Positions 1,105-16,508 of a stretch of DNA of 45,355 nucleotides are shown here, piece after piece. Below the pieces are notes generated by a model, which saw only the letters and a program-made list of their open reading frames with translations, did not search any database and was not told where the DNA came from. Both the position numbers and the translations under genes were made by a program. The stretch lies in IMG/VR virus record IMGVR_UViG_3300010362_000033, positions 1-45,355 of that record; one strand, given 5' to 3'. How positions within the stretch are numbered: the first letter of the stretch is position 1; every line of letters starts with the position of its first letter. Source of the stretch: a virus (lineage: Duplodnaviria > Caudoviricetes).

Positions 1105-2586
1105 TCACAGCGTACCAACCAGCACGTACGACCACAAGCCAGACACCGTGAGCGTGCCGCCGGCCTGCAGCGAAGCGTGCGCGTGTACGGTCCCTTCGGC
1201 GACATTGATGACATCGAACGTGCACGGTCGACGTGCACGCAACGTCAGCGGCCCATCAGCAGCAATCGCAATCTCAGTGAACTGACCGTTGCCAATCGCC
1301 CCATAGAGCTTGTTGACGTTGCCTGCAGGGGTGTCGACGGGATGATTCGTGTTGAACGCTGACCACGTCGGCACATCGGCTGGCAGTCGCGCGCCGGCAT
1401 TTCTGACCGCGCGCATCATCGCTTCCATGTTCGGCACTTCCCACAGGTTCGCGTATCGAAAGCCGCTGCCGTACGGGTACGTGCGCCCGAAGACGCCTGA
1501 TCCGGTATGGAAGCAGAACGCCCCAGCGCCGCAGATGATCGCGCCGGCGCGCAGACACGCGAGCACGAAGGGATCTTTCTGCTCTTGCACGCTCGAAGCC
1601 GGTCCCGGCGGTTCGTTGTCGACTGACGCGAACGGGCTGAAGAGATGAAAATCCCAGCATTGACGCACTTGTCGCGCGTTGTCGCCTGAACGCTCGGTGT
1701 GCAAATAGCGCGCATTCGCGTTCGAGACGTTGCTCGATGCTTGAATCGCGTCGATGCCTTGATCGCCGAGTCCTGTGCCGCACGGCAAGCCGAACGGCGC
1801 GAAGAGCCGCGCGATCTCGGTCGCTTCAGCCGCACTCGCGTTGCCTTCGTTGACGGCTTCGAGCATGACCAGCTTATGCAGACGCGACGCGACGACGTCG
1901 CGCATCTTGCGCGCATCACTGACCGGATCAGGTGAGCCGCCACCGATAGCCGTGAGCTGTACACGTAGCCCGAACTCGTCATAGGCGCAGTCGATGAATG
2001 AGCCGAGCGTGTCGGCGTAGTCAGGCCAGCGCGGATCGATCTCTTCTCCCGGCCATGCGACCTGACCGAGTACGCGCACGTAGTCGTACCCCTGCTGCTT
2101 GATGAACGACAGGTTCTGCTTGACGCGATCTCGGTCATGACGATGCCAGCCGCCGACCGCCCAGAACAACGTCGTACCGAGCGGCAAGCATGCGCCGCTG
2201 TCGTCGTGCCACAGCTTCCCGCTGACGCGCATGACGCCTGCGCGCGCTGGTGGTGCTTCCGGCTGCAGTTCGACATTGATGTCGGCAGCGAGTGTGATCT
2301 CGTCGAGTAGCGGCTCGCAGTCATCGCCTTCGATCTTGATGCTCGCGCGTGACCCGTACTCGACTCCCGGCGGTAGCCAGAATTCGAGCATGTAGTACGA
2401 GATGGGTCGTCCGACGACGGTCCAGTCGTTCGTACCCATCTCGCCGCGAATGTGTTCGGGGATCGTGCCGTCGGTCTTGCGCACGACCATGTGCACATAC
2501 AGCGACGGTGTCTTCGGAATGTCGGTCGGTTCCGTCGGTAACGGTTTCCACGGTGGCCACCAGCGACGAACGTCATCCCAGCGCAT
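1105..2586 (-). CDS. Putative glycoside hydrolase-like TIM-barrel protein
   Basis: GTTLFW...VKQNLSFIKQQGYDYVRVLG, MLEAVNEG (NE acid/base-like) and SVDNEP recall clan GH-A barrels. It is the last large gene of the late operon. Confidence 0.5.
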   Translation of the reverse strand: MRWDDVRRWWPPWKPLPTEPTDIPKTPSLYVHMVVRKTDGTIPEHIRGEMGTNDWTVVGRPISYYMLEFWLPPGVEYGSRASIKIEGDDCEPLLDEITLAADINVELQPEAPPARAGVMRVSGKLWHDDSGACLPLGTTLFWAVGGWHRHDRDRVKQNLSFIKQQGYDYVRVLGQVAWPGEEIDPRWPDYADTLGSFIDCAYDEFGLRVQLTAIGGGSPDPVSDARKMRDVVASRLHKLVMLEAVNEGNASAAEATEIARLFAPFGLPCGTGLGDQGIDAIQASSNVSNANARYLHTERSGDNARQVRQCWDFHLFSPFASVDNEPPGPASSVQEQKDPFVLACLRAGAIICGAGAFCFHTGSGVFGRTYPYGSGFRYANLWEVPNMEAMMRAVRNAGARLPADVPTWSAFNTNHPVDTPAGNVNKLYGAIGNGQFTEIAIAADGPLTLRARRPCTFDVINVAEGTVHAHASLQAGGTLTVSGLWSYVLVGTL

Positions 2587-2709: not shown

Positions 2710-3222
2710 TTACGTCGGTGTCGCGTAGGTCATCGTGAAAAACAGCTGCACGGTGCCGCCGGTCGGAATGTCACCGACCCCGATAACCGCCGGCACTTGC
2801 CCCGAGCCGGACCCGTTGACGTACATGGATGTGCCCGACGCTTGCACCATGACCGTCATGTGCGTGTAGTTCGCTTTCGTGATGCCACGCCAGATCGCGC
2901 CGCCCCCGGCGACGTCGTTCGTCGACAGTGCCGGAAACGGCAAGCCGGTGATCCGCAAGCCGCCCGACGCGGTCGTGTGCGTGAAGGTCGATGTCAGAAT
3001 GTTGCCGTGACAGACGACGAGCTTCGAGAACTTTGCATACAGCCCGAAGCGTGTCGTATACGCGACGTTCAAATTGCCAGCGGTGTCGAACGTGAGTGAC
3101 GGCGTCCAATTGCCGTAGTCGCCGCCGTACAGATAGTTGAGGTTATCGCGTAGGTGCGTGTTGAGCATCGTTGCGGTGACGAGTTCCCCAGCGACCCACG
3201 TGCGCGGCGTCGTCCATGCCAT
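2710..3222 (-). CDS. Minor tail/tail-fibre protein
   Basis: N-terminal MAWTTPRTWVAGELVTATMLNTHLRDNLNYL motif typical of siphovirus minor tail proteins; beta-rich C-terminus with ITGLPF. Confidence 0.7.
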   Translation of the reverse strand: MAWTTPRTWVAGELVTATMLNTHLRDNLNYLYGGDYGNWTPSLTFDTAGNLNVAYTTRFGLYAKFSKLVVCHGNILTSTFTHTTASGGLRITGLPFPALSTNDVAGGGAIWRGITKANYTHMTVMVQASGTSMYVNGSGSGQVPAVIGVGDIPTGGTVQLFFTMTYATPT

Positions 3223-3223
3223 G

Positions 3224-3607
3224 TCACACCCCTACGTGATGCGCGACGTTCTCGCGCTGCAGCATCTCGACCGATTCACTCGGCCACCATGACTGGTTTT
3301 CTCGTTTCTGTCGTGCGAGCAGCAGCCGCTCAATCTCGTCGGCGTCGACCGGAAACTGCACCGCGTGATACTGCGCGCCGCACTCGATGCAGCACGCGAG
3401 CGCCCAGCCACGACGCACGAAGAGACCGGCGCCGCACTCGCAATCGACAATCCAGCGCCCATGATCGACACGCGCGACGCGCACGCTGTCGGAGATGTGG
3501 ACCTGCGCGACCTGCTTCGCTGCGAGCGCGCGCACTTGCCAGTCGCACAGCTCGACCGGCGAGCGCACACCGAGCGCCGTCGCATCAAGCAGTCGTGTGA
3601 ACATCAC
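3224..3607 (-). CDS. Cys-rich tail-region protein (putative Zn-binding)
   Basis: VDHGRWIVDCECG...CCIECG...ENQSWWPSE; coupled to both neighbours. Confidence 0.6.
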   Translation of the reverse strand: MMFTRLLDATALGVRSPVELCDWQVRALAAKQVAQVHISDSVRVARVDHGRWIVDCECGAGLFVRRGWALACCIECGAQYHAVQFPVDADEIERLLLARQKRENQSWWPSESVEMLQRENVAHHVGV

Positions 3608-4781
3608 TGCCCCGTCGAAGTTCGATGGACTGCGGCTCGTCGTAGGAATACACGAGCACTTGCCGCGCTGATGCCATGACGCGCGCTTCGAGTGTCGGCA
3701 CTTCGTCGAAGCGTCGCTGCGACACGAGAATGGTGTCGACGAGATCGCCGCCCCAGTCAGACAGCTCGCGCACGACGACCGGCGCCGCGCGATGCTTCGA
3801 GCCGTCGCGCTCGATGCCGGACACCGGCACGTGATACCGCGACGCCACGCGCGCCAGTAACAGCCCGTTGCCGCAGCCTAAGTCGAGCACCGCGCCTTGT
3901 GGCGGCGACGCGTCGAGCGCGCGCAGGATCTGCGCGTGCGCGCTGTGCATGGCGTCACGTGTGCTGAAACCGTTCTCAATCCACTGCCAGTCGCGCGCCG
4001 GCGCCGCTGCATCGACACTCGCGCGAAATGGCGCGAGACTCGTCAGCGGCACGAAGTTCGGTTTCAGGAAGGGAAACGTCAGACCGCTCGGGGCGTCGAC
4101 GGGGTATTGCGTGCCCATCAGCCGCACGTCACGTCGCTTCGCGGTGTAGTCGGTATTCGTGACGACCTTGACGACTGGCCAGATGACTTCCGCGATGCCG
4201 TGGAGCGCGCTGTATTGCACTGGCCACGACAGCAGCTCGCGGGTCCACTCGGCGCAGCTGTCCGGTAAGAGCGTTGCGTACTGCTGCGCGGCATACTCCG
4301 ATGCGACGCAGCCAAACGCGCACGGCAGATGCGGCACGAGCCGCACGCCGAGCCAGCGCCCGAGAATATTCGAGCCGAGCGGCGTCGCGCTGCGATGCAC
4401 CATTGCGAGCGTCGTGTCGCGCAGGCGTCGTTCATTCCAGACGCGGTCGAAAAACTGAATGCAGCATTCAGGAAAGCCGAGCAGCCGCCCGATGTGCGCA
4501 TCGTCGCGCGCGTGAAAGGCGTTCGCGAGATCAAGCCCGACCGCCGGTGTGCGCGTGATAGCGACGCGCGTCTTCGTGACGACGGTCATGCACAGCTGCA
4601 GCGTCTCGACCCGTTCGGCGAGCTGGGGTCTGTCGAAGACGAGCGCCGCGAGCCGCAGGTCAGCGGCGACGCTCGTCAGCTCGACGTCGAGCCATGCGGC
4701 TTGAATCGCATCGACGCGCGGCGCCCAGATCGCTTCGGCACGATCTGACGCCCATGCAATGCGTGTGAACTCAGCCGGCAT
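3585..4781 (-). CDS. DUF483-like Cys domain fused to class I SAM methyltransferase
   Basis: IGRLLGFPECCIQFF and LVPHLPCAFGC motifs; C-terminal VLDLGCGNG SAM-binding motif I. Confidence 0.75.
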   Translation of the reverse strand: MPAEFTRIAWASDRAEAIWAPRVDAIQAAWLDVELTSVAADLRLAALVFDRPQLAERVETLQLCMTVVTKTRVAITRTPAVGLDLANAFHARDDAHIGRLLGFPECCIQFFDRVWNERRLRDTTLAMVHRSATPLGSNILGRWLGVRLVPHLPCAFGCVASEYAAQQYATLLPDSCAEWTRELLSWPVQYSALHGIAEVIWPVVKVVTNTDYTAKRRDVRLMGTQYPVDAPSGLTFPFLKPNFVPLTSLAPFRASVDAAAPARDWQWIENGFSTRDAMHSAHAQILRALDASPPQGAVLDLGCGNGLLLARVASRYHVPVSGIERDGSKHRAAPVVVRELSDWGGDLVDTILVSQRRFDEVPTLEARVMASARQVLVYSYDEPQSIELRRGSDVHTTA

Positions 4782-6006
4782 CGTTGTGATCTCCGTGCAT
4801 GTGCGTCATCCCCTGATCCCCGTGCACGATGTACGCGCCGTCGCTGTGCTGAAAGCCGTCCGGTGCGTCCCAGTGATCCCCGTGCGGCTGCTCGTGCGGC
4901 GCGCTGTCGCGTAAGACGCGCTGTTCGAGTGCGTGCCGGCGCGCCGCGACGAGCGTCAGCGGCGTCTGCCCCAGCTTCACGAGTTCGTCTTCAAGCGTCT
5001 CGAAGAGTCGGTACCAGACGCGGCACTGCTCGCTGCGATTGCGCCAGTCGCCGTCGATGGCGGTACCGGGACACTGCCCCTTGCAGGCATAGAAGAAGCG
5101 ACAGCCCTGACAGCCCCCATCAGCCCACGGGGTTTCGTAGAGCGCGCGATAGCGCTCGACGCCGTGACTGCCGGCTTTGACCCAGTCGACGCCGTCTTTA
5201 TTCGTGCGACCGCAGTTCGCGCGGTTCCCGAGCCCGTTGACGCTGCGCACGGCTGGCGTCGTCAACGGGTCGCAGGCATTCCAGACACACGACCCCGGTG
5301 CGCCCGTCAGCAGCAGCTGCGCGAGATCGGTGAAGACATCGAAGCGCAGTACCTTGAGCTGCTGCTGCAGCTGATAGCACGCGAGAAAGGCGTTGACCTG
5401 CTCGTCGTCGCTGAGCGCCAGCTGCTGCCGTACCTCGTCGTGATCGACTTCGAGCGCATGCAGCCGCACGTGTGCGATACGATTCGCATCGAGTTCGCGC
5501 AGCCACACGAGCAAGCGCGGCAAGCGCTCGGCTGATGCGTTGCCCCGATGGAGCGTCACGATCAGCGACGGCACGTTCTGCGCATCGAGCAGCAGCGCGA
5601 TAGCGCGCATCGTCGCTGCCGTGGCTTCGCGCGTCTTGTCGAGTGTGCCAGCCCAGCGTGCATCGTTGAGTTCATCGGGTCCGTCGACCGAGATACCGAC
5701 GCTCGTGCGACAGCGCGCGAATAGCTCGACATGCGCCGGCGTGATGAGCGCGCCATTCGTTTGCACGCTGGTCGAGCCGTAGCGCGCGAAGCCCCACTGC
5801 AGAATGTCGACGAGATCGTCGAACTTCATCAGCAACGGTTCGCCGCCAAAGAGCGTGAAGGCGCCGCCTTCGCGCATCAGTCCCCGTTTCATCGCGTCAA
5901 GGTCATAGCCAGCGGAGTAATTGCCGGCATCGCGCAAGGGATGCTCGTAGCAGTACGGACACGCCAGCTGACACGCCACGCCGACCGGTGAGAGTTCAAT
6001 CGTCAA
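4771..6006 (-). CDS. Radical SAM/SPASM-domain enzyme
   Basis: CQLACPYC (CxxxCxxC), FGGEPLL, QTNG and ISVDGP; SPASM cysteines CQGCRFFYACKGQCPG...C. The TTG start overlaps the upstream TGA (TTGA). Confidence 0.93.
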   Translation of the reverse strand: MTIELSPVGVACQLACPYCYEHPLRDAGNYSAGYDLDAMKRGLMREGGAFTLFGGEPLLMKFDDLVDILQWGFARYGSTSVQTNGALITPAHVELFARCRTSVGISVDGPDELNDARWAGTLDKTREATAATMRAIALLLDAQNVPSLIVTLHRGNASAERLPRLLVWLRELDANRIAHVRLHALEVDHDEVRQQLALSDDEQVNAFLACYQLQQQLKVLRFDVFTDLAQLLLTGAPGSCVWNACDPLTTPAVRSVNGLGNRANCGRTNKDGVDWVKAGSHGVERYRALYETPWADGGCQGCRFFYACKGQCPGTAIDGDWRNRSEQCRVWYRLFETLEDELVKLGQTPLTLVAARRHALEQRVLRDSAPHEQPHGDHWDAPDGFQHSDGAYIVHGDQGMTHMHGDHNDAG

Positions 6007-6698
6007 TTTGCGTCTCCGTGCGGCGAGTCGCCGTGTTCCGCTGCCGCGACGTCATGGTGCGCGGTGTCGGTGTGTGCGGTGTTCTGCGCCGCCTGATCCC
6101 CGTGCGTGTTGTTGTCGGTGTGCGCGACGTCGGCGTGCGCACTGTCCACGTGTGCGCTGTCACCGTGTGTGTCGACGTGCGCCACGTCGCCGTGTGCCGT
6201 GCTCGTCGTGTCCGCGAAGTCTTCGTGCGTATTGTCGCCGTGCGCGACATTCACGAAGGCGACATTGATAAACGGCGTGTTATTCGAATAGCTGCCGCCG
6301 TCGAAGTGCTCATAGCCGTCGGTATGGTTGGGTACGTCGATGTGCGACGCGCCGTCGGTATGGTTGTAACTGGCGCCGAAGTCGCCATGCGCTTGATCCC
6401 CGTGTGACGTGTCGCCGTGCGCGGTGTCGGTGTGCGTGCGACCGCCCCCGGTGTCGTTGTGACCGCCCATCGAATCGTTGTGATCGTCGTGCCGCGAGCT
6501 ATCGACGTGCGCGGTGTCGGTGTGCGCCGTGTCACTGTGCGCCACGTCGCTATGTGCGGTATCGCCGTGTGCGGTGTCGGTGTGCGCGATGTCGCCGTGT
6601 GACGCGTCGAGATGCAGCGCGTCGCCGTGCGGCACGTCCCCGTGCGCGACGTCGTCGTGCGAGACCGGCGCGCTGTCCTGATGCGCGATGTCAATGTG
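6003..6698 (-). repeat. His-x-Asp coding repeat (~37 copies, mostly 5-residue spacing)
   Basis: HGDVAHVDTHGDSAHVDSAHADVAHTD... counted by eye in the translation. Confidence 0.95.
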
Positions 6699-9275
6699 CC
6701 CGATGATGAGCCCGAAGCCGAGTCGCGTCGTCAGGTCGAGTTCGCTGAAGCCTTGAATTTCGAGCAGCCAGTACGCCGTGCTGTCTGAGATGGCGAGCGC
6801 GTACTCGACGCTCAGCACGTTGTCGACGAGCTGATAGCGCTTGCCTTGAATGTAGTACCCACGGGGAATGGTGCCGCTCGTGTCGATGCCGGTCACGACT
6901 TCCTGAATGCCGATGCGGTCACCGATCTCGCGCAGTACGAGCTGCTGCTTGAGCGTGTCGGTCGACGCGACGAACGCCATACGGTCGATACTCGCGAAGG
7001 CTGCCGTCTGCGTCTGCAGGACATACAGCGCGATCTCCGCGCCGACGTCCAGCCGCGATTGATACGGCATGTCGACGCCGACCGTCACGACGCCGATGTT
7101 CGCTTGTGCAGTCTCGTCGTCTTCTTCGAGAATCACATTCTCGAAGTCGTAGAGACCCCGTCCCCGCACTTGAAACACGCCAGCCGTGCCGCCGATCCAG
7201 CCTTCGACCGTGCCGGTATTCGTCACTTCGAGCCGCGCGCCGTTGCCGCCGAAGTTCGCGACAATCGTGCAGAACGCTGTCAGGTCGGCGCCGCTGCCGT
7301 CTTGCGCCCCATTCATCACGTAGTCGGTCGTTGCGACCGGCGTGACCATGTCGGTACCGCCGACGCGCGCCGCAATCTGCTGCGGGTCACGATACGGACT
7401 GAGCCACGTAAACGTCTGCCCCGGTACGAGCTTCGTCGCACTCTGCAGCGACGCGAGTACCGTCGTCGCGACGGTGTCGGCGCGCTTCGGGTGTACGGTG
7501 ACCTGTACGTCATTCAGCGAGCGGTCACGCTGATAGGTCAGGTCGAGTGCAGTCAGGTCGACGAACGTCGCGAGATTGACGCGGTTCTGTGCACGTCGGC
7601 TGCGCCCTTCAAAGGTCAGCGTGCCGTCGCCCTTTGGGTAGACGAAGCCGTGCTCGCTGGCGGCGAGCTTCGCGGCTTCTTCCATTGCCGTCTGAGACTC
7701 GTCACGTGCGCTGTCGAGTGAGTACGCCATCTGGTCGACGCCCTGATCGACTTCGAGCGCGCGCGGCTGGCGTGGCAAGCTGTTGACGACGGTCGTAAAG
7801 ACGTCGCCGGGGTACTGATTGATCTGCACCGGCAGGCCATGCAGCTTCGCTTGCGCGAGTTCATCCATGTAATCGACAGCGGTGACGAACGTGCGCCGCG
7901 AGCCGTACTGTCCGGCGACCGGTTTGATGATGTCGACGCGACCGGTGAAGAGCGTTTTTGTCGTGACGTCGAAGCTGGCGCGCCAGCGCACGCCGATACC
8001 GATACTGAAACCGGCGCGACAGTTCGTGTGTCCGGGGCTGTAGTAGCCGAGCAGGTGTGCGGAGTTCTGCGCCGAGTTATTGAGCGCGAACGTCATTTCG
8101 CCGGTCGCCGCAATGCGCTCGGTGACGTTGCCGCTGGTCATGCCGCCTGATGCGGTGATGCCTTCATAGCGCAGCACGTCGCCGGTGACATCGGTCCAGC
8201 CGTTGTCACGTCCGCTCAGTTCCATCTCGACGACAAAGCGCAACGTGCGGTCCGTGGCGGCGCCGACCATCGTGCCGACGCTGCCGGTCGACGACACGCC
8301 GGTCAGCGCGGCGACAGGTACGGTGTACGTGATTTCGAGCTTCGGCGGATTCGCGCTCCCGGCCATCGCGACCTGAATGCGCGAGAAGCTGCCAGAGACC
8401 CACGCCGGCGCCACGTTCGCAACGTCGAAGTTCGCGTTGCGTATGCCGAACTTGCTGACGCCGGTTTTGCTGACGTTGCCGATGCCCGTCGCATTGAAGG
8501 TAAAGGCGTTGTACGCACTCGCGGTCATGCTCGCGAAGGTGCGCGGCGACCCCGTCTGCGACGTCGATCCAACCTGACTGTAGTCAGTCGCCGCGAGCGC
8601 GGTGTTACTCGCTGGCGTGGCGGTATAGATGTCGGCGTTTGGCGACGCGACGAGATTGTCGGTGATGATGTTCACGTACAGCGACAGCTGCGCCGCTGAG
8701 ATGTTCGCCGCGCTCGTGAGTGCCGACGTATCGAACAAGAACAGACCGCGAACGTTCGCTTGCCATTGATTCGTGGTACTGCTGGCGTTGATGAAGATCA
8801 GGTCGCTTGCCGTCGCGCTGTCGTTGGCTGAATTACCGGCGCCGGCGCGAATCGTCGACCATGTTTCGTTGACACCGAAGCGCCCGACTTGCCCGTCGAC
8901 CGTCGTCGTCTCCGGGTCCGCATCGGGGTACGCCGTCAGCGTCGCGAAGCCGAGATCGAGCGCCGGCACCAACGGCTGCGCAATCAGCAGATCCCACGCG
9001 TGACACGTCCACCAGACCCACTTGAACGCGTGGTACATGCGCTGCGCAAAGACCCAGTGCGAGCGCACGTCGAGCGTGAACGAGTGATCGGCGTGCTCGA
9101 CGATGTAGGCATGCGGCAGCACGCGCACGATGCGCGCGCGATAGCCGACGTCACACGGACGAATCCGCAGAACCCAGCGCAGCCAGCGCCCGACGAGCGG
9201 TGTGTCGAGCGCCCCGACGAGCAGCCACTGCCAGCGCGCGAAGAATGCCGGCCCAAAGGCGCGCCACGGTTCCAT
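6003..9275 (-). CDS. Tail tip/baseplate hub protein with a carbohydrate-binding-like domain and C-terminal His-x-Asp repeat
   Basis: Immediately after tape measure (TGATG overlap). Contains an RGLFLFDTSAL...AQLSLY...PKLEITY domain, a WTDVTGDV hub start, IGDRIGI, and then the HxD repeats. Confidence 0.8.
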   Translation of the reverse strand: MEPWRAFGPAFFARWQWLLVGALDTPLVGRWLRWVLRIRPCDVGYRARIVRVLPHAYIVEHADHSFTLDVRSHWVFAQRMYHAFKWVWWTCHAWDLLIAQPLVPALDLGFATLTAYPDADPETTTVDGQVGRFGVNETWSTIRAGAGNSANDSATASDLIFINASSTTNQWQANVRGLFLFDTSALTSAANISAAQLSLYVNIITDNLVASPNADIYTATPASNTALAATDYSQVGSTSQTGSPRTFASMTASAYNAFTFNATGIGNVSKTGVSKFGIRNANFDVANVAPAWVSGSFSRIQVAMAGSANPPKLEITYTVPVAALTGVSSTGSVGTMVGAATDRTLRFVVEMELSGRDNGWTDVTGDVLRYEGITASGGMTSGNVTERIAATGEMTFALNNSAQNSAHLLGYYSPGHTNCRAGFSIGIGVRWRASFDVTTKTLFTGRVDIIKPVAGQYGSRRTFVTAVDYMDELAQAKLHGLPVQINQYPGDVFTTVVNSLPRQPRALEVDQGVDQMAYSLDSARDESQTAMEEAAKLAASEHGFVYPKGDGTLTFEGRSRRAQNRVNLATFVDLTALDLTYQRDRSLNDVQVTVHPKRADTVATTVLASLQSATKLVPGQTFTWLSPYRDPQQIAARVGGTDMVTPVATTDYVMNGAQDGSGADLTAFCTIVANFGGNGARLEVTNTGTVEGWIGGTAGVFQVRGRGLYDFENVILEEDDETAQANIGVVTVGVDMPYQSRLDVGAEIALYVLQTQTAAFASIDRMAFVASTDTLKQQLVLREIGDRIGIQEVVTGIDTSGTIPRGYYIQGKRYQLVDNVLSVEYALAISDSTAYWLLEIQGFSELDLTTRLGFGLIIGHIDIAHQDSAPVSHDDVAHGDVPHGDALHLDASHGDIAHTDTAHGDTAHSDVAHSDTAHTDTAHVDSSRHDDHNDSMGGHNDTGGGRTHTDTAHGDTSHGDQAHGDFGASYNHTDGASHIDVPNHTDGYEHFDGGSYSNNTPFINVAFVNVAHGDNTHEDFADTTSTAHGDVAHVDTHGDSAHVDSAHADVAHTDNNTHGDQAAQNTAHTDTAHHDVAAAEHGDSPHGDAN

Positions 9276-12200
9276 CAGACACTGCTCATCTGCGCATCGC
9301 GCAGCACACGACGCAAGCTCGCGATGTGCAGGTCATCGCGCTGCGTCAGTAGCCGTGACAGTTCGGTGAGACTCGGTCCCTCAGTCACGGGGTTTTGCAT
9401 CATCGTCGCGAAGGTCTTGCCTTCGCCGCTGAAGGCGAAGTACTCGTTGCCCTGCGTCGAGAACAGCATCGGCTTATCGGCATAGCCGAAGCCGCCAGCC
9501 GCCATCTTGATCGGCGTCGGCGTCAACGAGACCGGCCCCGGCAGCGGTGGCACATCCCAGACGATGGGGATACTGATGCTGAAGCCGTCGAAGCGTGCGG
9601 CAATCGCGCGCGCGCCGGCGTCGGCTTGCTTCGCGAAGTCTTCGGCCATGCCGTCAGCCGCGACCGCGAAACTCTTCTCGACACTCGTCGCTGAGTCTTG
9701 AAACGTCTTTTCGATCTTCACGCCCATGCCGTTGTAGGTGTCGGTGGCGTGCTTGTCGATGTTCGACGTCGCTTGCTTCATCGCGTCTTCGCTGGCCTGC
9801 GCGGTCGATTCCTGCGCGGCTTTGATCTGCGCATCGAGCGCCGCCATCTGTCCGCGAATCTGGGTCTCAATCACGCCCATGACTTCTTCGGGTGCTTCCT
9901 GCTCGACCTGCTTCGCAAGGTCGTCGCGCTTTTTCTGCAGATCATCGAGTGCGGTCTTGACTTTCTCGGCGCCCTTCTCGGCGTCGTCCTGCGCTTTGAT
10001 CCACGCCGCAGCAGCCGCGTCGCCGGCGTCGGCCATCGCTTGCTGCATCGCTTTGTACGCTTTGTTCAGCTGTTCTTGATTGAACTGGCCAGACGCGAGC
10101 ATCGTGTCGAAGATCTGCCGCGTTTGATCGGCGGCTTGCTGCAGCTGCGCATTCGTCTTGTAGCCAGCGTCTGCAATCGCGTCGGTGATGTTCAGGGACT
10201 GATTGATCTTGTCGATGACGGACTGCACCGCGTCGCCGCCCCGACGCTCCGCGTCCATCAGCGCGGTGACATCGCGTCGCGCTTGTGCTGCCGTGCGACC
10301 GGTCAGTTCGTACGACTCCGCGATCTTTTTCATCATGTCGTCGAACCCTTTGAACTGCTGTTCGAACGACGCTTCGAGCTTGCGCCCTTCTTGTTCGAGC
10401 TTGCTCGGTCCCCCCAGTTTCGAGATCGCTTCAATCGCGCCGGTCACGCCGGCAGTGATGGCGCCGATCCAGTCGCCGCGCTCAAGACTCTTCGTGATGC
10501 CGTCGACGGTGCGCGCCGCAATCGCGCCCATCTCGGTCCATTTGTTATTGACGCTGTCGAGCATGCTGGCGACGTCGTTGAGCGCGCGCGAGAGACGCCG
10601 CGCATCGTCTTCAGAATCTTTCGCTGCGGCTTGCGGGATGATGCCCGACGGCTGCTGGTTCGGTGCGAGACCGACACTCTGTCGCGCGACCGCGTCGGCC
10701 AGCGTCTGCGCGGTTTTGATGTTCCGTTTTTCCTGCTCTTCGAGCGCGCGCGCGTGCGCTTCCGCGAGATCGAACCCGTCGGCCAGTGGAATCAGCCCGT
10801 CTTCGGTCAGCCCCTGCAGCGCGTACTGCAGCTGCTGCTGTTGCGACGTCAGGTTCGGTACGGTGACTTCGCCAAAATTCTTGAAGACTTTGTTCGTCGC
10901 TTCGGTGACACTCTGCTGAAACTTCATGTCATCGGCGACGGCTTCGACCTGATATTTGAAGAGTCCGTAATACTTCGCGAGATCTTCGACGCTCTTGCCG
11001 TGCGCTAAAAAGTAGCGAATCGCTTCGACGGTCGACCCGCTGATCTCGTCGATGGCTTCGGGGATCGACTTCATCGCGCCGGTGACGTTGCTCGCAAACG
11101 CTTTCCAATCGTCAGCGGCTTTCTTGCCGGCGGCAGCATTCTTCGCGACCGCGCGTGTGTGCGTTTCCCAGACTTGCGCGACGGCGTTGACCTGCGCGGC
11201 GGTCACGCCGTATTCATTCGTGATGTAGCGTAGGGACTTCCCGTGTTCGAGTTCGTACTTGATGGCTTCGACGGTCGCATCGCTCATCGTCGCGAACATG
11301 CGCGCCGTCTGACTGGTCTTTTGGTTCGCTTCGTCTTGCGCCGCTGAGAAGTCGACGACGCGACCGCGCGTCTTTTCGAGATCTTCGGCGAGCTTGTCGG
11401 CTTTCGCGGTGATGGTCGAGACCGCGTTGCCAAAGTCGATGGTGCCCTGCACCGTGTCGGCGTTCTTTTTTTGCAGGTCCGCGAGATCTTGATTGACGGT
11501 CTTCAGAAAGATCTTGACTTGTTCGAGCGTCGCGAGTTGCCCCGTCGCGAACGCCGTCGCGCGCGCAGCTTCGAGCGTCGCTTTTGCAATCCACGTCGAG
11601 CCGAGCGCGATGTCGCGCAGCCCAATGACGACGCCGGCGCGAATCAAATTGAAATAGTCAAGGGCTTTCAGCAGCAGTGAGAAGCCCTTCACCGCGCCAA
11701 TGACGGCGTCTGACACCAGATTCGCGGCGGTGGCGTTGTCTTTGAGTTCGCCGGTATTCGTGTCGATGGAGCCGTTCAGCTCGTCGATCAGCGTGAGTAC
11801 GGTCTCGTTCGTCGTGATGGCGCGCCCGATGGATTCTTCAACGTTGTTCCATGTGTTCCCGAGCTGCTGCAGGCGCCCTTCGTACGTGCCGGCGAGCGCT
11901 GCCGCCTGACCGCCGAACTTCGCCGTAATTTGATCGAGCACATAGCCGAACCCTTCGGCTTTGACTTTCGTGTCGTCGATGGTGATGCCGGCTTTTTTCA
12001 GCGCGCCGGTGTTCCCTTCGGCAGCTTTCGCGACGAGCATCGCGGCTTCTGGCAGATCTTTGCCGAGACCGGCAGCGAGTTCGGTCGTCGCTTTGAGCGC
12101 TTTTTCCATGTCACGCGGCATGACGTTGCCGACTGTGACGAGCAGCGCTTCGGCGGATTCGACGGCGTCATCTTGATACGTCGTGACTTTCTGCAGCTCT

Positions 12201-12790
12201 GTCGCGTACCGCTGATACGCCGAGATCACGCTCGGGACTGCCGTCCCCTGCGCGCGCAGCGCGGCAGCGACTTGTGCGTGCGACTTCTCGGCTTCGCCGG
12301 CGGCCTTGATCGAATCGCTGATCGTGCTGGTGAGCAGTCCCCATGCACTCTTCGCGGCGCCGATGATGGCCTGCGCGCCGACGTAACTCGTGATCAGTTT
12401 GCCGATGGAGATGTTCGCGTTATTGACGGTATCGGTGAGTCCCGCGACCCCACTTTGCGCCGTCTTCGCAGCCGTCGCGAGCTGTTGCAGGTTTTCAGGT
12501 ACGCGCAAGCCGAGCGCGCGCATTTTCTCGGCGGCTTCGGCGGCGACGTTGCCGACGCGAATCAGTTCGGCTTCGGTGAGCTTCGAGACGCCGCCGACCT
12601 TCTCGACGGCAGCGGCCATCAGCGTGGCGTCTTGAATGATTTTCTGACCCGACAGACTGTTCGACATCCGGGTCAGCGCGTCTTGCACTTTGCCGGCGCC
12701 GGTCTCGAATGTCTTCAGCTCGACTTCGGCTTTGCGGATCGCATCCGAAAAGTTCGTAAAGTCGAAGATGAATTTCGCAGTCAGTGCCAT
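9275..12790 (-). CDS. Tape measure protein
   Basis: 1171-aa Ala-rich helical protein downstream of the tail chaperone; KMAAGG motif near the C-terminus. Confidence 0.92.
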   Translation of the reverse strand: MALTAKFIFDFTNFSDAIRKAEVELKTFETGAGKVQDALTRMSNSLSGQKIIQDATLMAAAVEKVGGVSKLTEAELIRVGNVAAEAAEKMRALGLRVPENLQQLATAAKTAQSGVAGLTDTVNNANISIGKLITSYVGAQAIIGAAKSAWGLLTSTISDSIKAAGEAEKSHAQVAAALRAQGTAVPSVISAYQRYATELQKVTTYQDDAVESAEALLVTVGNVMPRDMEKALKATTELAAGLGKDLPEAAMLVAKAAEGNTGALKKAGITIDDTKVKAEGFGYVLDQITAKFGGQAAALAGTYEGRLQQLGNTWNNVEESIGRAITTNETVLTLIDELNGSIDTNTGELKDNATAANLVSDAVIGAVKGFSLLLKALDYFNLIRAGVVIGLRDIALGSTWIAKATLEAARATAFATGQLATLEQVKIFLKTVNQDLADLQKKNADTVQGTIDFGNAVSTITAKADKLAEDLEKTRGRVVDFSAAQDEANQKTSQTARMFATMSDATVEAIKYELEHGKSLRYITNEYGVTAAQVNAVAQVWETHTRAVAKNAAAGKKAADDWKAFASNVTGAMKSIPEAIDEISGSTVEAIRYFLAHGKSVEDLAKYYGLFKYQVEAVADDMKFQQSVTEATNKVFKNFGEVTVPNLTSQQQQLQYALQGLTEDGLIPLADGFDLAEAHARALEEQEKRNIKTAQTLADAVARQSVGLAPNQQPSGIIPQAAAKDSEDDARRLSRALNDVASMLDSVNNKWTEMGAIAARTVDGITKSLERGDWIGAITAGVTGAIEAISKLGGPSKLEQEGRKLEASFEQQFKGFDDMMKKIAESYELTGRTAAQARRDVTALMDAERRGGDAVQSVIDKINQSLNITDAIADAGYKTNAQLQQAADQTRQIFDTMLASGQFNQEQLNKAYKAMQQAMADAGDAAAAAWIKAQDDAEKGAEKVKTALDDLQKKRDDLAKQVEQEAPEEVMGVIETQIRGQMAALDAQIKAAQESTAQASEDAMKQATSNIDKHATDTYNGMGVKIEKTFQDSATSVEKSFAVAADGMAEDFAKQADAGARAIAARFDGFSISIPIVWDVPPLPGPVSLTPTPIKMAAGGFGYADKPMLFSTQGNEYFAFSGEGKTFATMMQNPVTEGPSLTELSRLLTQRDDLHIASLRRVLRDAQMSSV

Positions 12791-14211: not shown

Positions 14212-15300
14212 TTAAGCGGCCTGTACTTTCACGAGCTGTTGCAGATCGCCCAGCACGGTTTTCGCGCGTGCGACCCACGTAGCCTCGGCTATGCAAGCCG
14301 GTAATGCGGCAGCGACACGTGCACGACCGGCTTTGTCAGCCAGCCAGAGACGGATCAGCGCTGCCGCCTCGGTCGGTGTCGTGAAGGTCGGCACCAGATC
14401 GCCGAAGACTTCGCCGACTTCCGCACGGTACTCGCTCAGATGAAATGCCCCGCACGCCGCGAGTTCATACGCACGGGGACTGAGTGATTCGGCGTAGAGT
14501 GGCGCCTGCGCTTTGTAGCCCCAGTTCTTGCGCGAGCGGTACAGATTCAGCCCGATGCGCGCACGCCGATAGAGCGCGCCGGCGGTTTCGTTGTTGATCT
14601 GCTCGTCGCGAACCAGACTGCGCACCTGCTTGTTGAGACCCAGCCCTTTCCATGTGCCATAGAGACCGAGATCGATGCCGCTCCAATCAATCGAGTTAAA
14701 CCATTCGACGCGCTCGGAGAACCCGGAGCCGACGAAGACGACGTCGTGTGTCGGCACCTGTCCATCGATCAAGTGCGCCGAGACGTAGTGACGTTCCGGG
14801 TGATAAGCGTGCGGCAGATACCCCGCGCGCGGATTCACGGCTTTGAACGCGGCGACGCAGCTGCGCTCGTTCGTCCAGCAGCCGTCGACGCGCGCCGCCA
14901 TCGCGAGTTCTTGCTCGCTGTCGTACGGGGATTCTGTGAAGAGCACCGTCACCGTCAGGCCAGCACGCTTCATCATGATCACGACATCGGGATGCATCAG
15001 CATCGCGCTCACAATCAGCACGACGTCGACCTGATGCCGCAGCGCCATTTCAAGCGCGCCGATTCCAGCTTGATACATGATGTCAGCGGTATTCGGCTTC
15101 GCGAGATCGGGCTGCGCTTTCTTCTTCTTTCTCCACATCACGTGCAGCGTCTTGCCGGCGAACTCGATGCGCTGGTCGAGACGAAACGGCACGATCTCGA
15201 CCCCGAGCACGTGCAAGCCGTAGCGCAGACCGGCTTCGACGTCAGCCGTCGACCATGTCGCGCCGGGATGCACGAGCAGCACGCGCAGCGGTCGTGTCAC
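14212..15300 (-). CDS. Glycosyltransferase, CgeB/GT-B-like
   Basis: YLPHAYHPERH, DVVFVGS, LYRRARIGLNLYR and SPRAYELAACGAFHLS motifs. Confidence 0.85.
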   Translation of the reverse strand: MTRPLRVLLVHPGATWSTADVEAGLRYGLHVLGVEIVPFRLDQRIEFAGKTLHVMWRKKKKAQPDLAKPNTADIMYQAGIGALEMALRHQVDVVLIVSAMLMHPDVVIMMKRAGLTVTVLFTESPYDSEQELAMAARVDGCWTNERSCVAAFKAVNPRAGYLPHAYHPERHYVSAHLIDGQVPTHDVVFVGSGFSERVEWFNSIDWSGIDLGLYGTWKGLGLNKQVRSLVRDEQINNETAGALYRRARIGLNLYRSRKNWGYKAQAPLYAESLSPRAYELAACGAFHLSEYRAEVGEVFGDLVPTFTTPTEAAALIRLWLADKAGRARVAAALPACIAEATWVARAKTVLGDLQQLVKVQAA

Positions 15301-16508
15301 CGCGACAGCTCCGGTGTCGGGTCAGGATCGGGGTCCGGTTCGGGATCAGGGTCTGGCGTCGGGGTTTCACGCAACATGGATGCCTCTGCTTTCTTGATGC
15401 CGAAAACCAGCTTCATTCCCGGCGGATCGGTGTTCGGGGTCTCGACGCGCGCGAAGCACTGCCCGTGCCGCTGTTCAAATTCATCCCATGCGCGCTTGAC
15501 GCCGGGATACATCACGTTGTCGTAGTCGTCGCCGGCGACGATGCCGCCGACGCGTACGTGTGGCCACCATGCGTCGAGATCGGCGGCTGTCGACTCGTAG
15601 GAGTGGTCTGCGTCGACGTACAAAAAGTCGATGGGTCCGTCCGTCCATGCGGCAGCGGCTGCGGTCGTGAGCGCTGGCACCAGTCGCACCGACGGCGCGA
15701 CGTGCGCGGCGACGAGATTCGTCGCGCACTCGAAGAGCATCTGCGGCGCCCCGGTGACGGTGCCGCCGTACGCGACGGCGCCCATCCACGTATCGACGCA
15801 GGTCAGCACGCCGCCCCACTGCCGCAGCTCGTGCGCGAAGGCAATCGCCGACGCACCGCGCCACGTGCCCAGCTCGACGCAGCGATGCGGTCGATGCGCA
15901 TGCAGCAGGTCGAGCAGCTGCGGACCGTGATGCAGCCAGCCTTGCGGCAGATGCTGCAGAACTGGCGGCGCCGCCGGCCTGAGATGCGCAATGACATCGG
16001 CGCACCAGACGATCTCGGATGGCGCCCAGCGCATCGACGCGAGAAAGTCGAAGTCGCCTTCGTACCGTGTGCCCCAGCGCCCGAGCTTCGTCTTGTCGTT
16101 CGGGATCAGCATCATTTGCGAGCTGACGTTGCCGACGCGCAGTGCTGGTTCCGACCACAAGACGCGGTCATTCCAGACCATGCGAAACAAGATCGGCTTG
16201 TCGCGGACTGTCGCGCGTGCGTCTTCCATCAGCTGCCGCGCTCCCGGCAGATAGATGTCGTCGTCGTCCATGAACGCGAGATGCTGCCCACGCGCGCGCG
16301 CGATGCCGGCGGTCCGCTCGGCGGCGCCCCAGTTATGACCCCGCGCGCACTCGACGAACGTGCAGCCAGCGACAGCGGCGACCGCTGCCGCCGACGGAGA
16401 CTCACCGACGACCAGCACTTCGTCGTCATCGCCGCGCTGCTGTGTGATCGACTGCAGCGCGCGATACAGCGTCGGTCGACCAATCGTCGGGACGATGAAG
16501 CTAATCAT
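15297..16508 (-). CDS. GT2 glycosyltransferase fused to class I SAM methyltransferase
   Basis: ISFIVPTIGR...FMDDDD (GT-A DxD); then VELGTWRGAS, CVDTW, IDFLYVDADHSY, GGIVAGDDY; C-terminal (PD/PE) repeat. Confidence 0.88.
   Translation of the reverse strand: MISFIVPTIGRPTLYRALQSITQQRGDDDEVLVVGESPSAAAVAAVAGCTFVECARGHNWGAAERTAGIARARGQHLAFMDDDDIYLPGARQLMEDARATVRDKPILFRMVWNDRVLWSEPALRVGNVSSQMMLIPNDKTKLGRWGTRYEGDFDFLASMRWAPSEIVWCADVIAHLRPAAPPVLQHLPQGWLHHGPQLLDLLHAHRPHRCVELGTWRGASAIAFAHELRQWGGVLTCVDTWMGAVAYGGTVTGAPQMLFECATNLVAAHVAPSVRLVPALTTAAAAAWTDGPIDFLYVDADHSYESTAADLDAWWPHVRVGGIVAGDDYDNVMYPGVKRAWDEFEQRHGQCFARVETPNTDPPGMKLVFGIKKAEASMLRETPTPDPDPEPDPDPDPTPELSR

Follow-up and report, generated by a model that had tools for sequence, protein, structure and literature searches.

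A radical SAM/SPASM enzyme and a DUF483 partner linked to an aromatic-x-Asp/Asn array on a phage tail protein: a candidate system for cross-linking virion proteins

The virus record IMGVR_UViG_3300010362_000033 (Caudoviricetes) is 45,355 bases long and was analyzed whole; we refer to this full stretch as the window. Profile scans of the window's proteins place its head genes in the HK97 type. On its (-) strand lies a set of overlapping genes that encode a tail protein ending in an array of aromatic-x-Asp/Asn motifs, a radical S-adenosylmethionine (SAM)/SPASM enzyme, and a fusion of a DUF483-like domain with a methyltransferase. The features that concern us first are the following (aa, amino acids).

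9275..12790 (-), likely tape measure protein, named from its size and its place in the gene order, without a family match
6003..9275 (-), 1090-aa likely tail-tip protein, encoded directly after the tape measure gene
8253..9275 (-), N-terminal add-on, residues 1-341 of the tail protein
6696..8252 (-), siphovirus tail core, residues 342 to ~860 of the tail protein
6006..6698 (-), array of 41 aromatic-x-Asp/Asn motifs (37 HxD), residues 860-1090 of the tail protein, the putative substrate
4771..6006 (-), 411-aa radical SAM/SPASM enzyme, the putative maturase, in a clade of its own
4774..4884 (-), C-terminal tail of the radical SAM enzyme, a low-confidence part of the model, with 6 HxD
3585..4781 (-), 398-aa fusion of DUF483 and methyltransferase
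4062..4781 (-), DUF483-like domain with conserved LLGxPxCC and HxPCxxxC, the constant partner
3585..3998 (-), class I methyltransferase domain of that fusion, not present in all family members

The gene overlaps described in the initial annotation are present: the TGA stop of the tail protein overlaps the TTG start of the radical SAM gene (TTGA, 6003-6006), and the stop of the latter overlaps the ATG start of the next gene by 11 nt. The name "tail-tip" given to the 1090-aa protein stands in part. Its position after the tape measure and weak look-alikes in the Atlas (DUF5047, Sipho_Gp37) favor it, but Pfam and PHROG scans of the protein returned no match. The tail core also exists without an array, as stand-alone proteins of 500-590 aa with 0-1 HxD each (120 listed of 242 shorter homologues, where the length filter excluded array-bearing homologues by design). 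The ~340-aa N-terminal add-on is shared only with locus L016 among the fetched loci and is absent from the closest relative, L001.

The array had been described as ~37 His-x-Asp motifs in the last ~230 residues, with other aromatic residues keeping the register where His is missing, and both statements are accurate. Residues 860-1090 (231 aa) contain exactly 37 HxD motifs, which take 37 of the 38 His residues there, compared with a mean of 6.5 (sd 2.1, max 16) in 10,000 shuffles of the array sequence. The four non-His motifs, YSN, FIN, FVN, and FAD, bring the total to 41, mostly at a 5-residue period. A chance or frameshift origin of the array is ruled out by the shuffles together with conservation in dozens of loci.

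Relatives of the radical SAM enzyme made up 2423 of 8000 scored candidates, and their loci, numbered L here, were taken from viral contigs (13, plus the best 80 of 127), from cultured phages, and from genomes (the best 80 of 406, the genome scan behind these cellular loci taking in 9 of 64 parts). Enzymes were clustered at 90% identity, and an array was called where 50 aa, on either strand, contained 7 or more aromatic-x-Asp/Asn motifs. The suspected co-occurrence of HxD tails with this enzyme is borne out: an array lies in the fetched flanks of 52 of the 53 viral enzyme clusters (83/93 loci) and DUF483 in 51, against 1/39 (that one uninspected) and 0/39, respectively, for unrelated radical SAM enzymes from the same scan. 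The only viral cluster that misses an array, L011, is an 8-kb fragment. Cellular clusters have an array in 15/30 (L117 being doubtful) and DUF483 in 28/30; 13 of the 15 misses show shorter motif runs or terminal motifs by eye, and the other two are cut within 0.5 kb upstream. The reverse test used a 100-aa three-repeat domain present in 37 viral loci, 31 of which bear an array. The enzyme is found in 28 of these 31, 22 of the 31 having already been found through the enzyme; among the nine newly found array-bearing loci, six have it, two end at a contig edge, and L201 is without it. The six loci with the three-repeat domain and no array all lack the enzyme, and three of them are complete genomes. 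Tail-core loci number nine, eight of them already known; the new one, L180, has neither an array nor any of the cassette, its fibre-anchor gene coming directly after the core. A functional linkage of array, radical SAM enzyme, and partner is strongly supported in both directions. The three-gene system is real, widespread, and uncharacterized.

Comparison of 53 arrays with 2022 motifs defines what the motif is. HxD accounts for 1765, followed by YxD (83), FxD (58), FxN (53), and HxN (30). Asp stands at +2 of 1786 of the 1849 His residues, and His at +2 of only 4. The L035 array, where the enzyme is kept, has Phe-x-Asn in 33 of its 40 motifs, and 15 of the 18 motifs in L058 are HxN. Because His is wholly replaceable by Phe, the motif is, as read from these arrays, aromatic-x-Asx and not a metal ligand pair; the metal-binding array first envisaged cannot be general given that Phe-x-Asn arrays exist. 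Position 1 is always aromatic, position 3 is constrained, and position 2 is free, which would be the pattern of a three-residue ring.

Arrays are carried by siphovirus tail cores, by proteins with a likely fibre anchor, by collagen-like fibres, and by a small three-repeat domain that closes baseplate/fibre blocks (phages Cumys and phiMa, and a haloarchaeal plasmid). Cellular arrays are short all-motif peptides, Tat-like precursors, or the ends of 900-1850-aa proteins; we apply the label "Tat-like" on the basis of what we take to be the twin-arginine pattern. Since it is fused to such varied carriers, the array behaves as a portable C-terminal tag. The claim that the module acts on a virion protein accordingly needs narrowing: the phage arrays do sit on tail and fibre proteins, but in cells the module also serves non-virion peptides. 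Several carriers deserve separate mention. In Thermus phage phiLo, the radical SAM gene and the genes for three large HxD proteins (L173:15807-21414, phiLo_137-135) lie on different strands. In L092:4957-11028 and L109:9178-11828, the module is accompanied by a Tat-like precursor and an NTP_transf_5 gene, and some neighbors resemble PqqD or kinases by eye. L106:9162-12631, L121:9676-12977, and L108:3080-6500 encode related small peptides with one terminal His-x-Asp each, in clusters that hold additional radical SAM enzymes, some of them B12-binding; these are apparently an undescribed type of cluster for peptides that are made on ribosomes and modified after translation (RiPPs).

The spacing of motifs within arrays was compared under mirror and direct repetition. 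A first mirror test (35/53 arrays; window p 0.04) was too loose and was replaced by a strict test of the outer-arm spacing, for which two arrays were too short. In the 51 remaining arrays, mirror beat direct spacing in 42, lost in 5, and tied in 4, and mirror spacing reached p<=0.05 in 17 of these 51 related rows. For the family as a whole, this suggests that the arrays may fold back into a needle. In L012, L043, L002, and L081, Cys pairs flank the variable array middle, as if pinning a tip loop.

A variant in which the motif itself has changed bears on specificity. Beside the enzyme in L100:3841-6975, L107:4506-7004, and L272:3-3497 lie large proteins that end in His/Tyr-x-Lys repeats; an extra gene separates the radical SAM and DUF483 genes in L100 and L272. 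In the enzymes of these loci, Arg267 is replaced by Leu, Asn, and Leu (L100/L107/L272), Asp269 is gained, and Thr151 becomes Gln. In the other 204 rows of the alignment, position 267 is Arg in 201 and Lys in 3, and Asp269 occurs in 1. Because a basic residue is lost and an acidic one is gained as the motif goes from Asp to Lys, these changes point to direct recognition of the motif by the enzyme, as far as an alignment can indicate it. The aromatic-x-residue logic of the initial annotation is strengthened by this variant, with its matching enzyme changes, and by the Phe-x-Asn arrays. The switch parallels the charge switch between HtkB D214 and HaaB H204 (PMC11499958), at a different aligned site; that published site was considered as the Lys determinant, but when mapped onto the enzyme it shows no change in the Lys-type loci. 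In the two Lys-type partners that could be aligned, the DUF483 Cys/His motif and Arg142/Arg147 are lost (shaky alignment).

The 411-aa enzyme is, as first annotated, a radical SAM/SPASM protein: it matches Pfam Radical_SAM (E 4.6e-12) and has eight SPASM-type Cys that are invariant in 75/75 aligned relatives. Its Cx3Cx2C lies at residues 12-19, which leaves no room for an N-terminal RiPP recognition element (RRE). The structure model is confident (predicted local distance difference test score, 87.5) apart from the C-terminal tail with its 6 HxD. Such a tail is found in 42/53 viral clusters vs 3/30 cellular ones; it might be a self-substrate, a decoy, or a means of virion incorporation. The best NCBIfam bit scores are DynA 64, anaerobic sulfatase maturase (anSME) 58, AmcB 57, YhhB 54, and GrrM 48. 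Membership in a named radical SAM family was rejected, every score being below its cut-off; the named triceptide families (XyeB, GrrM/OscB, FxsB, YhhB, AmcB) give 30-57 bits vs cut-offs of 310-450. An anSME was likewise rejected, at 58 bits vs a cut-off of 349 and with no sulfatase among the 35 window proteins scanned. By Foldseek, the top match is the triceptide synthase ChlB (E 3.7e-14). The reference set for the trees was small and included some proteins that are no more than family-like; its annotated members are XyeB, YhhB, an enzyme of a Haa cluster, GrrM, FxsB, anSME, and QhpD. A search for true AmcB in 201 genomes and for true DynA in 251 gave none, and family-like proteins took their place. 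In these trees the enzyme family is one clade (support 100/100) on a long stem. The idea that the enzyme belongs within a known cyclophane-synthase family is not supported: it has its own clade, ~25% identity to the known enzymes, and scores below the cut-offs. We suggest that it works like a motif-directed peptide maturase and regard it as a candidate triceptide synthase by analogy only.

The third protein (3585-4781) had been annotated as a Cys-domain/methyltransferase gene, and its two parts can now be named. It matches DUF483 weakly (E 4.5e-4), as do 37 of 50 relatives, with agreement from the Atlas; the DUF483-like domain holds the Cys motifs, and residues 262-393 adopt a class I methyltransferase fold (Z 12.3, root-mean-square deviation 3.3, 128 aligned). 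The methyltransferase is a less secure module member than first thought, for it is optional in the family and the DUF483 domain is the constant partner. A methyltransferase motif is present in 37/50 viral and 7/27 cellular partners by a simple pattern that undercounts, and the domain is absent from the 312-aa Cumys DUF483 protein; it is likely an optional tailoring step. DUF483 is fused to the radical SAM enzyme in 3/27 cellular clusters. Foldseek and a wide VIA search with the window's DUF483 fusion returned only methyltransferase-domain matches, the DUF483 part being barely probed, and a sequence search of solved structures likewise gave methyltransferase-domain matches only. For longer DUF483 fusions, there was 1 weak match among 1889 candidates, which is weak evidence.

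The module is already in print. Section 3.4 of PMC11437467 describes an "rSAM module" of three genes in the Thermus phages Cumys and phiMa, for which DNA modification was guessed, and reports cyanobacterial homologues near deazapurine genes. Like the window, these phages have the radical SAM enzyme (Cumys_12, 47% identical to that of the window), DUF483 (Cumys_11), and a conserved third gene, Cumys_13, located where the tail block ends and encoding 54 HxD; unlike the window, Cumys lacks the methyltransferase domain, and its array sits on a small carrier of fibre type. In contrast to our reading, the portion of that paper available to us does not mention His motifs (0 matches for "histidine"). 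Literature searches for an HxD/radical SAM phage system gave nothing beyond the work cited here, most subscription papers being outside their reach.

The closest chemical precedent is offered by the triceptide synthases HaaB, YhhB, HtkB, ChlB, GrrM/OscB, XyeB, and FxsB, which, like the enzyme here, are radical SAM/SPASM proteins without an RRE; His-C2 to C-beta links are known on HAA, HNR, and HTK, with residue 3 selected by charge (PMC11499958). Both systems have neighboring aromatic-x-residue motifs that include His, interchange of His and Phe, and a charge-based choice of residue 3. Unlike those synthases, the present enzyme has a constant DUF483 partner besides its separate clade. Moreover, the triceptide precursors are short leader-core peptides, whereas the window's substrate would be a 1090-aa structural protein with dozens of motifs and no evident leader; short precursors occur only in cellular relatives.

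We therefore propose that the radical SAM/SPASM enzyme and its DUF483 partner would recognize each of the 41 aromatic-x-Asp/Asn motifs and join the aromatic ring of residue 1 to the beta-carbon of residue 3, with a loss of 2 Da per motif, the type of bond being proposed by analogy to HaaB/HtkB/ChlB. Cross-linking would precede assembly of the tail domain, and the resulting filament would be stiff, would resist proteases, and would probably remain on the virion. More speculatively, a His-C2 to Asp-C-beta link would leave the same carbon bearing both a carboxylate and an imidazole N; such a pair could chelate metal through N and O, though only His/Asp arrays would have it. Some modification of the motifs by the enzyme is likely. 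By analogy with the triceptides, an aromatic-to-residue-3 cross-link in a protein that stays on the virion would be the best single mechanism, to which we assign a probability of roughly 0.55.

A number of observations weigh against this proposal. The enzyme reaches no NCBIfam cut-off (300-650 bits; best score, 64); anSME ties ChlB in Foldseek (E 3.9e-14, with a higher TM score) and leads by sequence; the anSME/cyclophane group just excludes the clade in a quick 73-row tree but includes it, without a resolved sister, in a careful 46-row tree; and approximately unbiased tests reject none of three candidate sisters (p 0.33, 0.38, 0.40). The Lys switch is one event (L107 is the sister of L100, and L272 turned up through its closeness to L100), the neighbors of about half of the 204 comparison rows are not known, and the site aligned to HaaB His204 (Glu186 here) is unchanged in the Lys-type loci. 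The L064 array also has Phe-x-Gln/Ser. The plasmid locus L225 and the cyanobacterial L269, both outside the tally, have the enzyme without a nearby array, and in L201, a 46-kb record that is 25% complete, a fibre-type gene (8001-9311) bears an array and the enzyme is missing. In the strict mirror test, the window's own array gives p 0.59, only its outermost gaps (5, 8, 5, 10) mirroring each other. Finally, the nearest whole-protein system, HXS, carries +8 Da on one motif and not -2 Da on all, according to the accessible part of PMC13128918.

That last system introduces the strongest competing explanation, which we consider unlikely but worth serious attention: the motifs are modified by other chemistry, such as an HXS-like carbon addition with desaturation, epimerization, or oxidation of residue 3, or in two steps, Asp being the target of DUF483 or the methyltransferase. 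In the anti-phage system HxsABCD, as described in the text available of PMC13128918, a 214-aa protein with five HxS repeats, HxsA, is matured by radical SAM enzymes to +8 Da and cleaved during maturation. What the two would share is that radical SAM enzymes mature an entire protein at its His-x-residue repeats, helped by a small accessory protein. HXS differs in using two radical SAM enzymes of other families (HxsB and HxsC) plus HxsD where the present module has one, and in being a host periplasmic defense rather than a phage tail gene; its effector has a signal peptide and a peptidoglycan-binding domain, whereas the window's array is joined to a tail-type core without a Pfam domain. No Hxs model was among the best 25 NCBIfam matches of the radical SAM enzyme, and none matched the partner. 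Other chemistry on repeats is also exemplified by TvgB, for which repeated cyclopropane formation on a TVGG repeat is described in the accessible part of PMC9062424. The long stem of the enzyme clade would suit such chemistry, as would a DUF483 that is near-obligate and occasionally fused, in contrast to simple triceptide pairs; the loss of its Cys/His motif and of Arg142/Arg147 from two Lys-type partners, by that shaky alignment, points the same way. The constraint on positions 1 and 3 around a free position 2 is instead the pattern of a three-residue ring.

It is improbable that the array is an unmodified, metal-pinned fold-back needle, with the radical SAM enzyme and DUF483 loading metal or chaperoning folding. 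The model would be the tip of the T4 long tail fibre, gp37, a needle with seven His-bound irons (PMC6957217, in the part accessible to us), which shares with the arrays His-x-X doublets along a thin fibre tip and perhaps an out-and-back geometry, which mirror spacing suggests for the family but not for the window's own array; a variable aromatic array middle is also what a tip would be expected to show. Ideas about iron in fibres also occur in other listed literature. Yet gp37 has His-x-His with iron at seven sites and no modifying enzyme, and the arrays have His-x-Asp in 20-95 motifs with His replaceable by Phe. Phe-x-Asn, Tyr-x-Lys, and His-x-Lys arrays keep the enzyme yet give no His/Asp ligand pairs, a needle is impossible for single-motif and short peptides, and the SAM-binding and SPASM motifs are intact. 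We give a similarly low place to the possibility that the array, once modified, is cleaved from the tail protein, then no more than its carrier, and set free as a peptide for purposes such as metal scavenging or counter-defense. The cellular versions do look like classic precursors, some with export signals, and cleavage of HxsA is a precedent; however, in phages the tail block has recurrent fusions of the array to tail cores, to fibre anchors, and to collagen-like fibres, the window's module has no peptidase or transporter gene, and mirror spacing suggests a folded structure. That the radical SAM enzyme and DUF483 modify phage DNA, with the array as a bystander, fits the cyanobacterial homologues near deazapurine genes and the array-less L269 among nuclease/PLD-like genes but is very improbable given the two-way linkage with arrays, the position in tail gene blocks, the HxD tail on the enzyme itself, its co-variation with the motif, and the lack of deazapurine DNA-modification genes among 61 neighbor proteins scanned (a chosen subset).

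Two further genes lie beyond the fusion gene.

3224..3607 (-), 127-aa Cys-rich gene, seen in the nearest siphovirus relatives and nowhere else
2710..3222 (-), 170-aa protein; other phages have its N-terminal motif joined to HxD arrays

The first is probably not core to the module, and the N-terminal motif of the second is likely a fibre anchor. Farther along, a 493-aa protein (window 1105-2586, (-)) is without a family match; a 30% relative of it lies just downstream of the module in L043, an unrelated-looking phage. Between the neck and tail genes (window 14212-16508, (-)) are two glycosyltransferase genes, one of them methyltransferase-fused, which are possibly for virion glycosylation as a second coat-modifying system. 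At the edge of the window, a 5'-open reading frame (1-334, (+)) resembles what we take, from its motif, to be the end of a tyrosine integrase. Adjoining it at ~575-625 is a partial tRNA-Glu-like stretch seen by eye, although ARAGORN called no tRNA genes in the window; together, the integrase-like frame and the tRNA-like stretch suggest a temperate phage.

The cross-linking proposal can be tested directly: the module is present in two cultured phages of T. thermophilus HB8, bacterial precursors with a single motif could serve as minimal substrates, and specificity could be swapped by means of the Lys variant. A broader picture, which we hold as possible rather than probable, is that in tailed viruses, bacterial and archaeal, part of the adsorption apparatus is a poly-cyclophane made by an enzyme. 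A portable aromatic-x-Asx tag, joined to any tail or fibre protein, would be cross-linked dozens of times by a dedicated radical SAM-DUF483 maturase, leader-free, to give a rigid fold-back needle whose His/Asp versions may also be metal chelators, and cells would use the same writer-and-tag system on exported and large proteins, including retuned Lys versions. If the proposal is true, it would place natural-product-type radical chemistry on a virion structural protein, a case we did not find in literature searches, and would give DUF483 a function. It would also provide an enzyme that needs no leader and cross-links a fusable tag as many as ~95 times, which would be useful for protein stapling.

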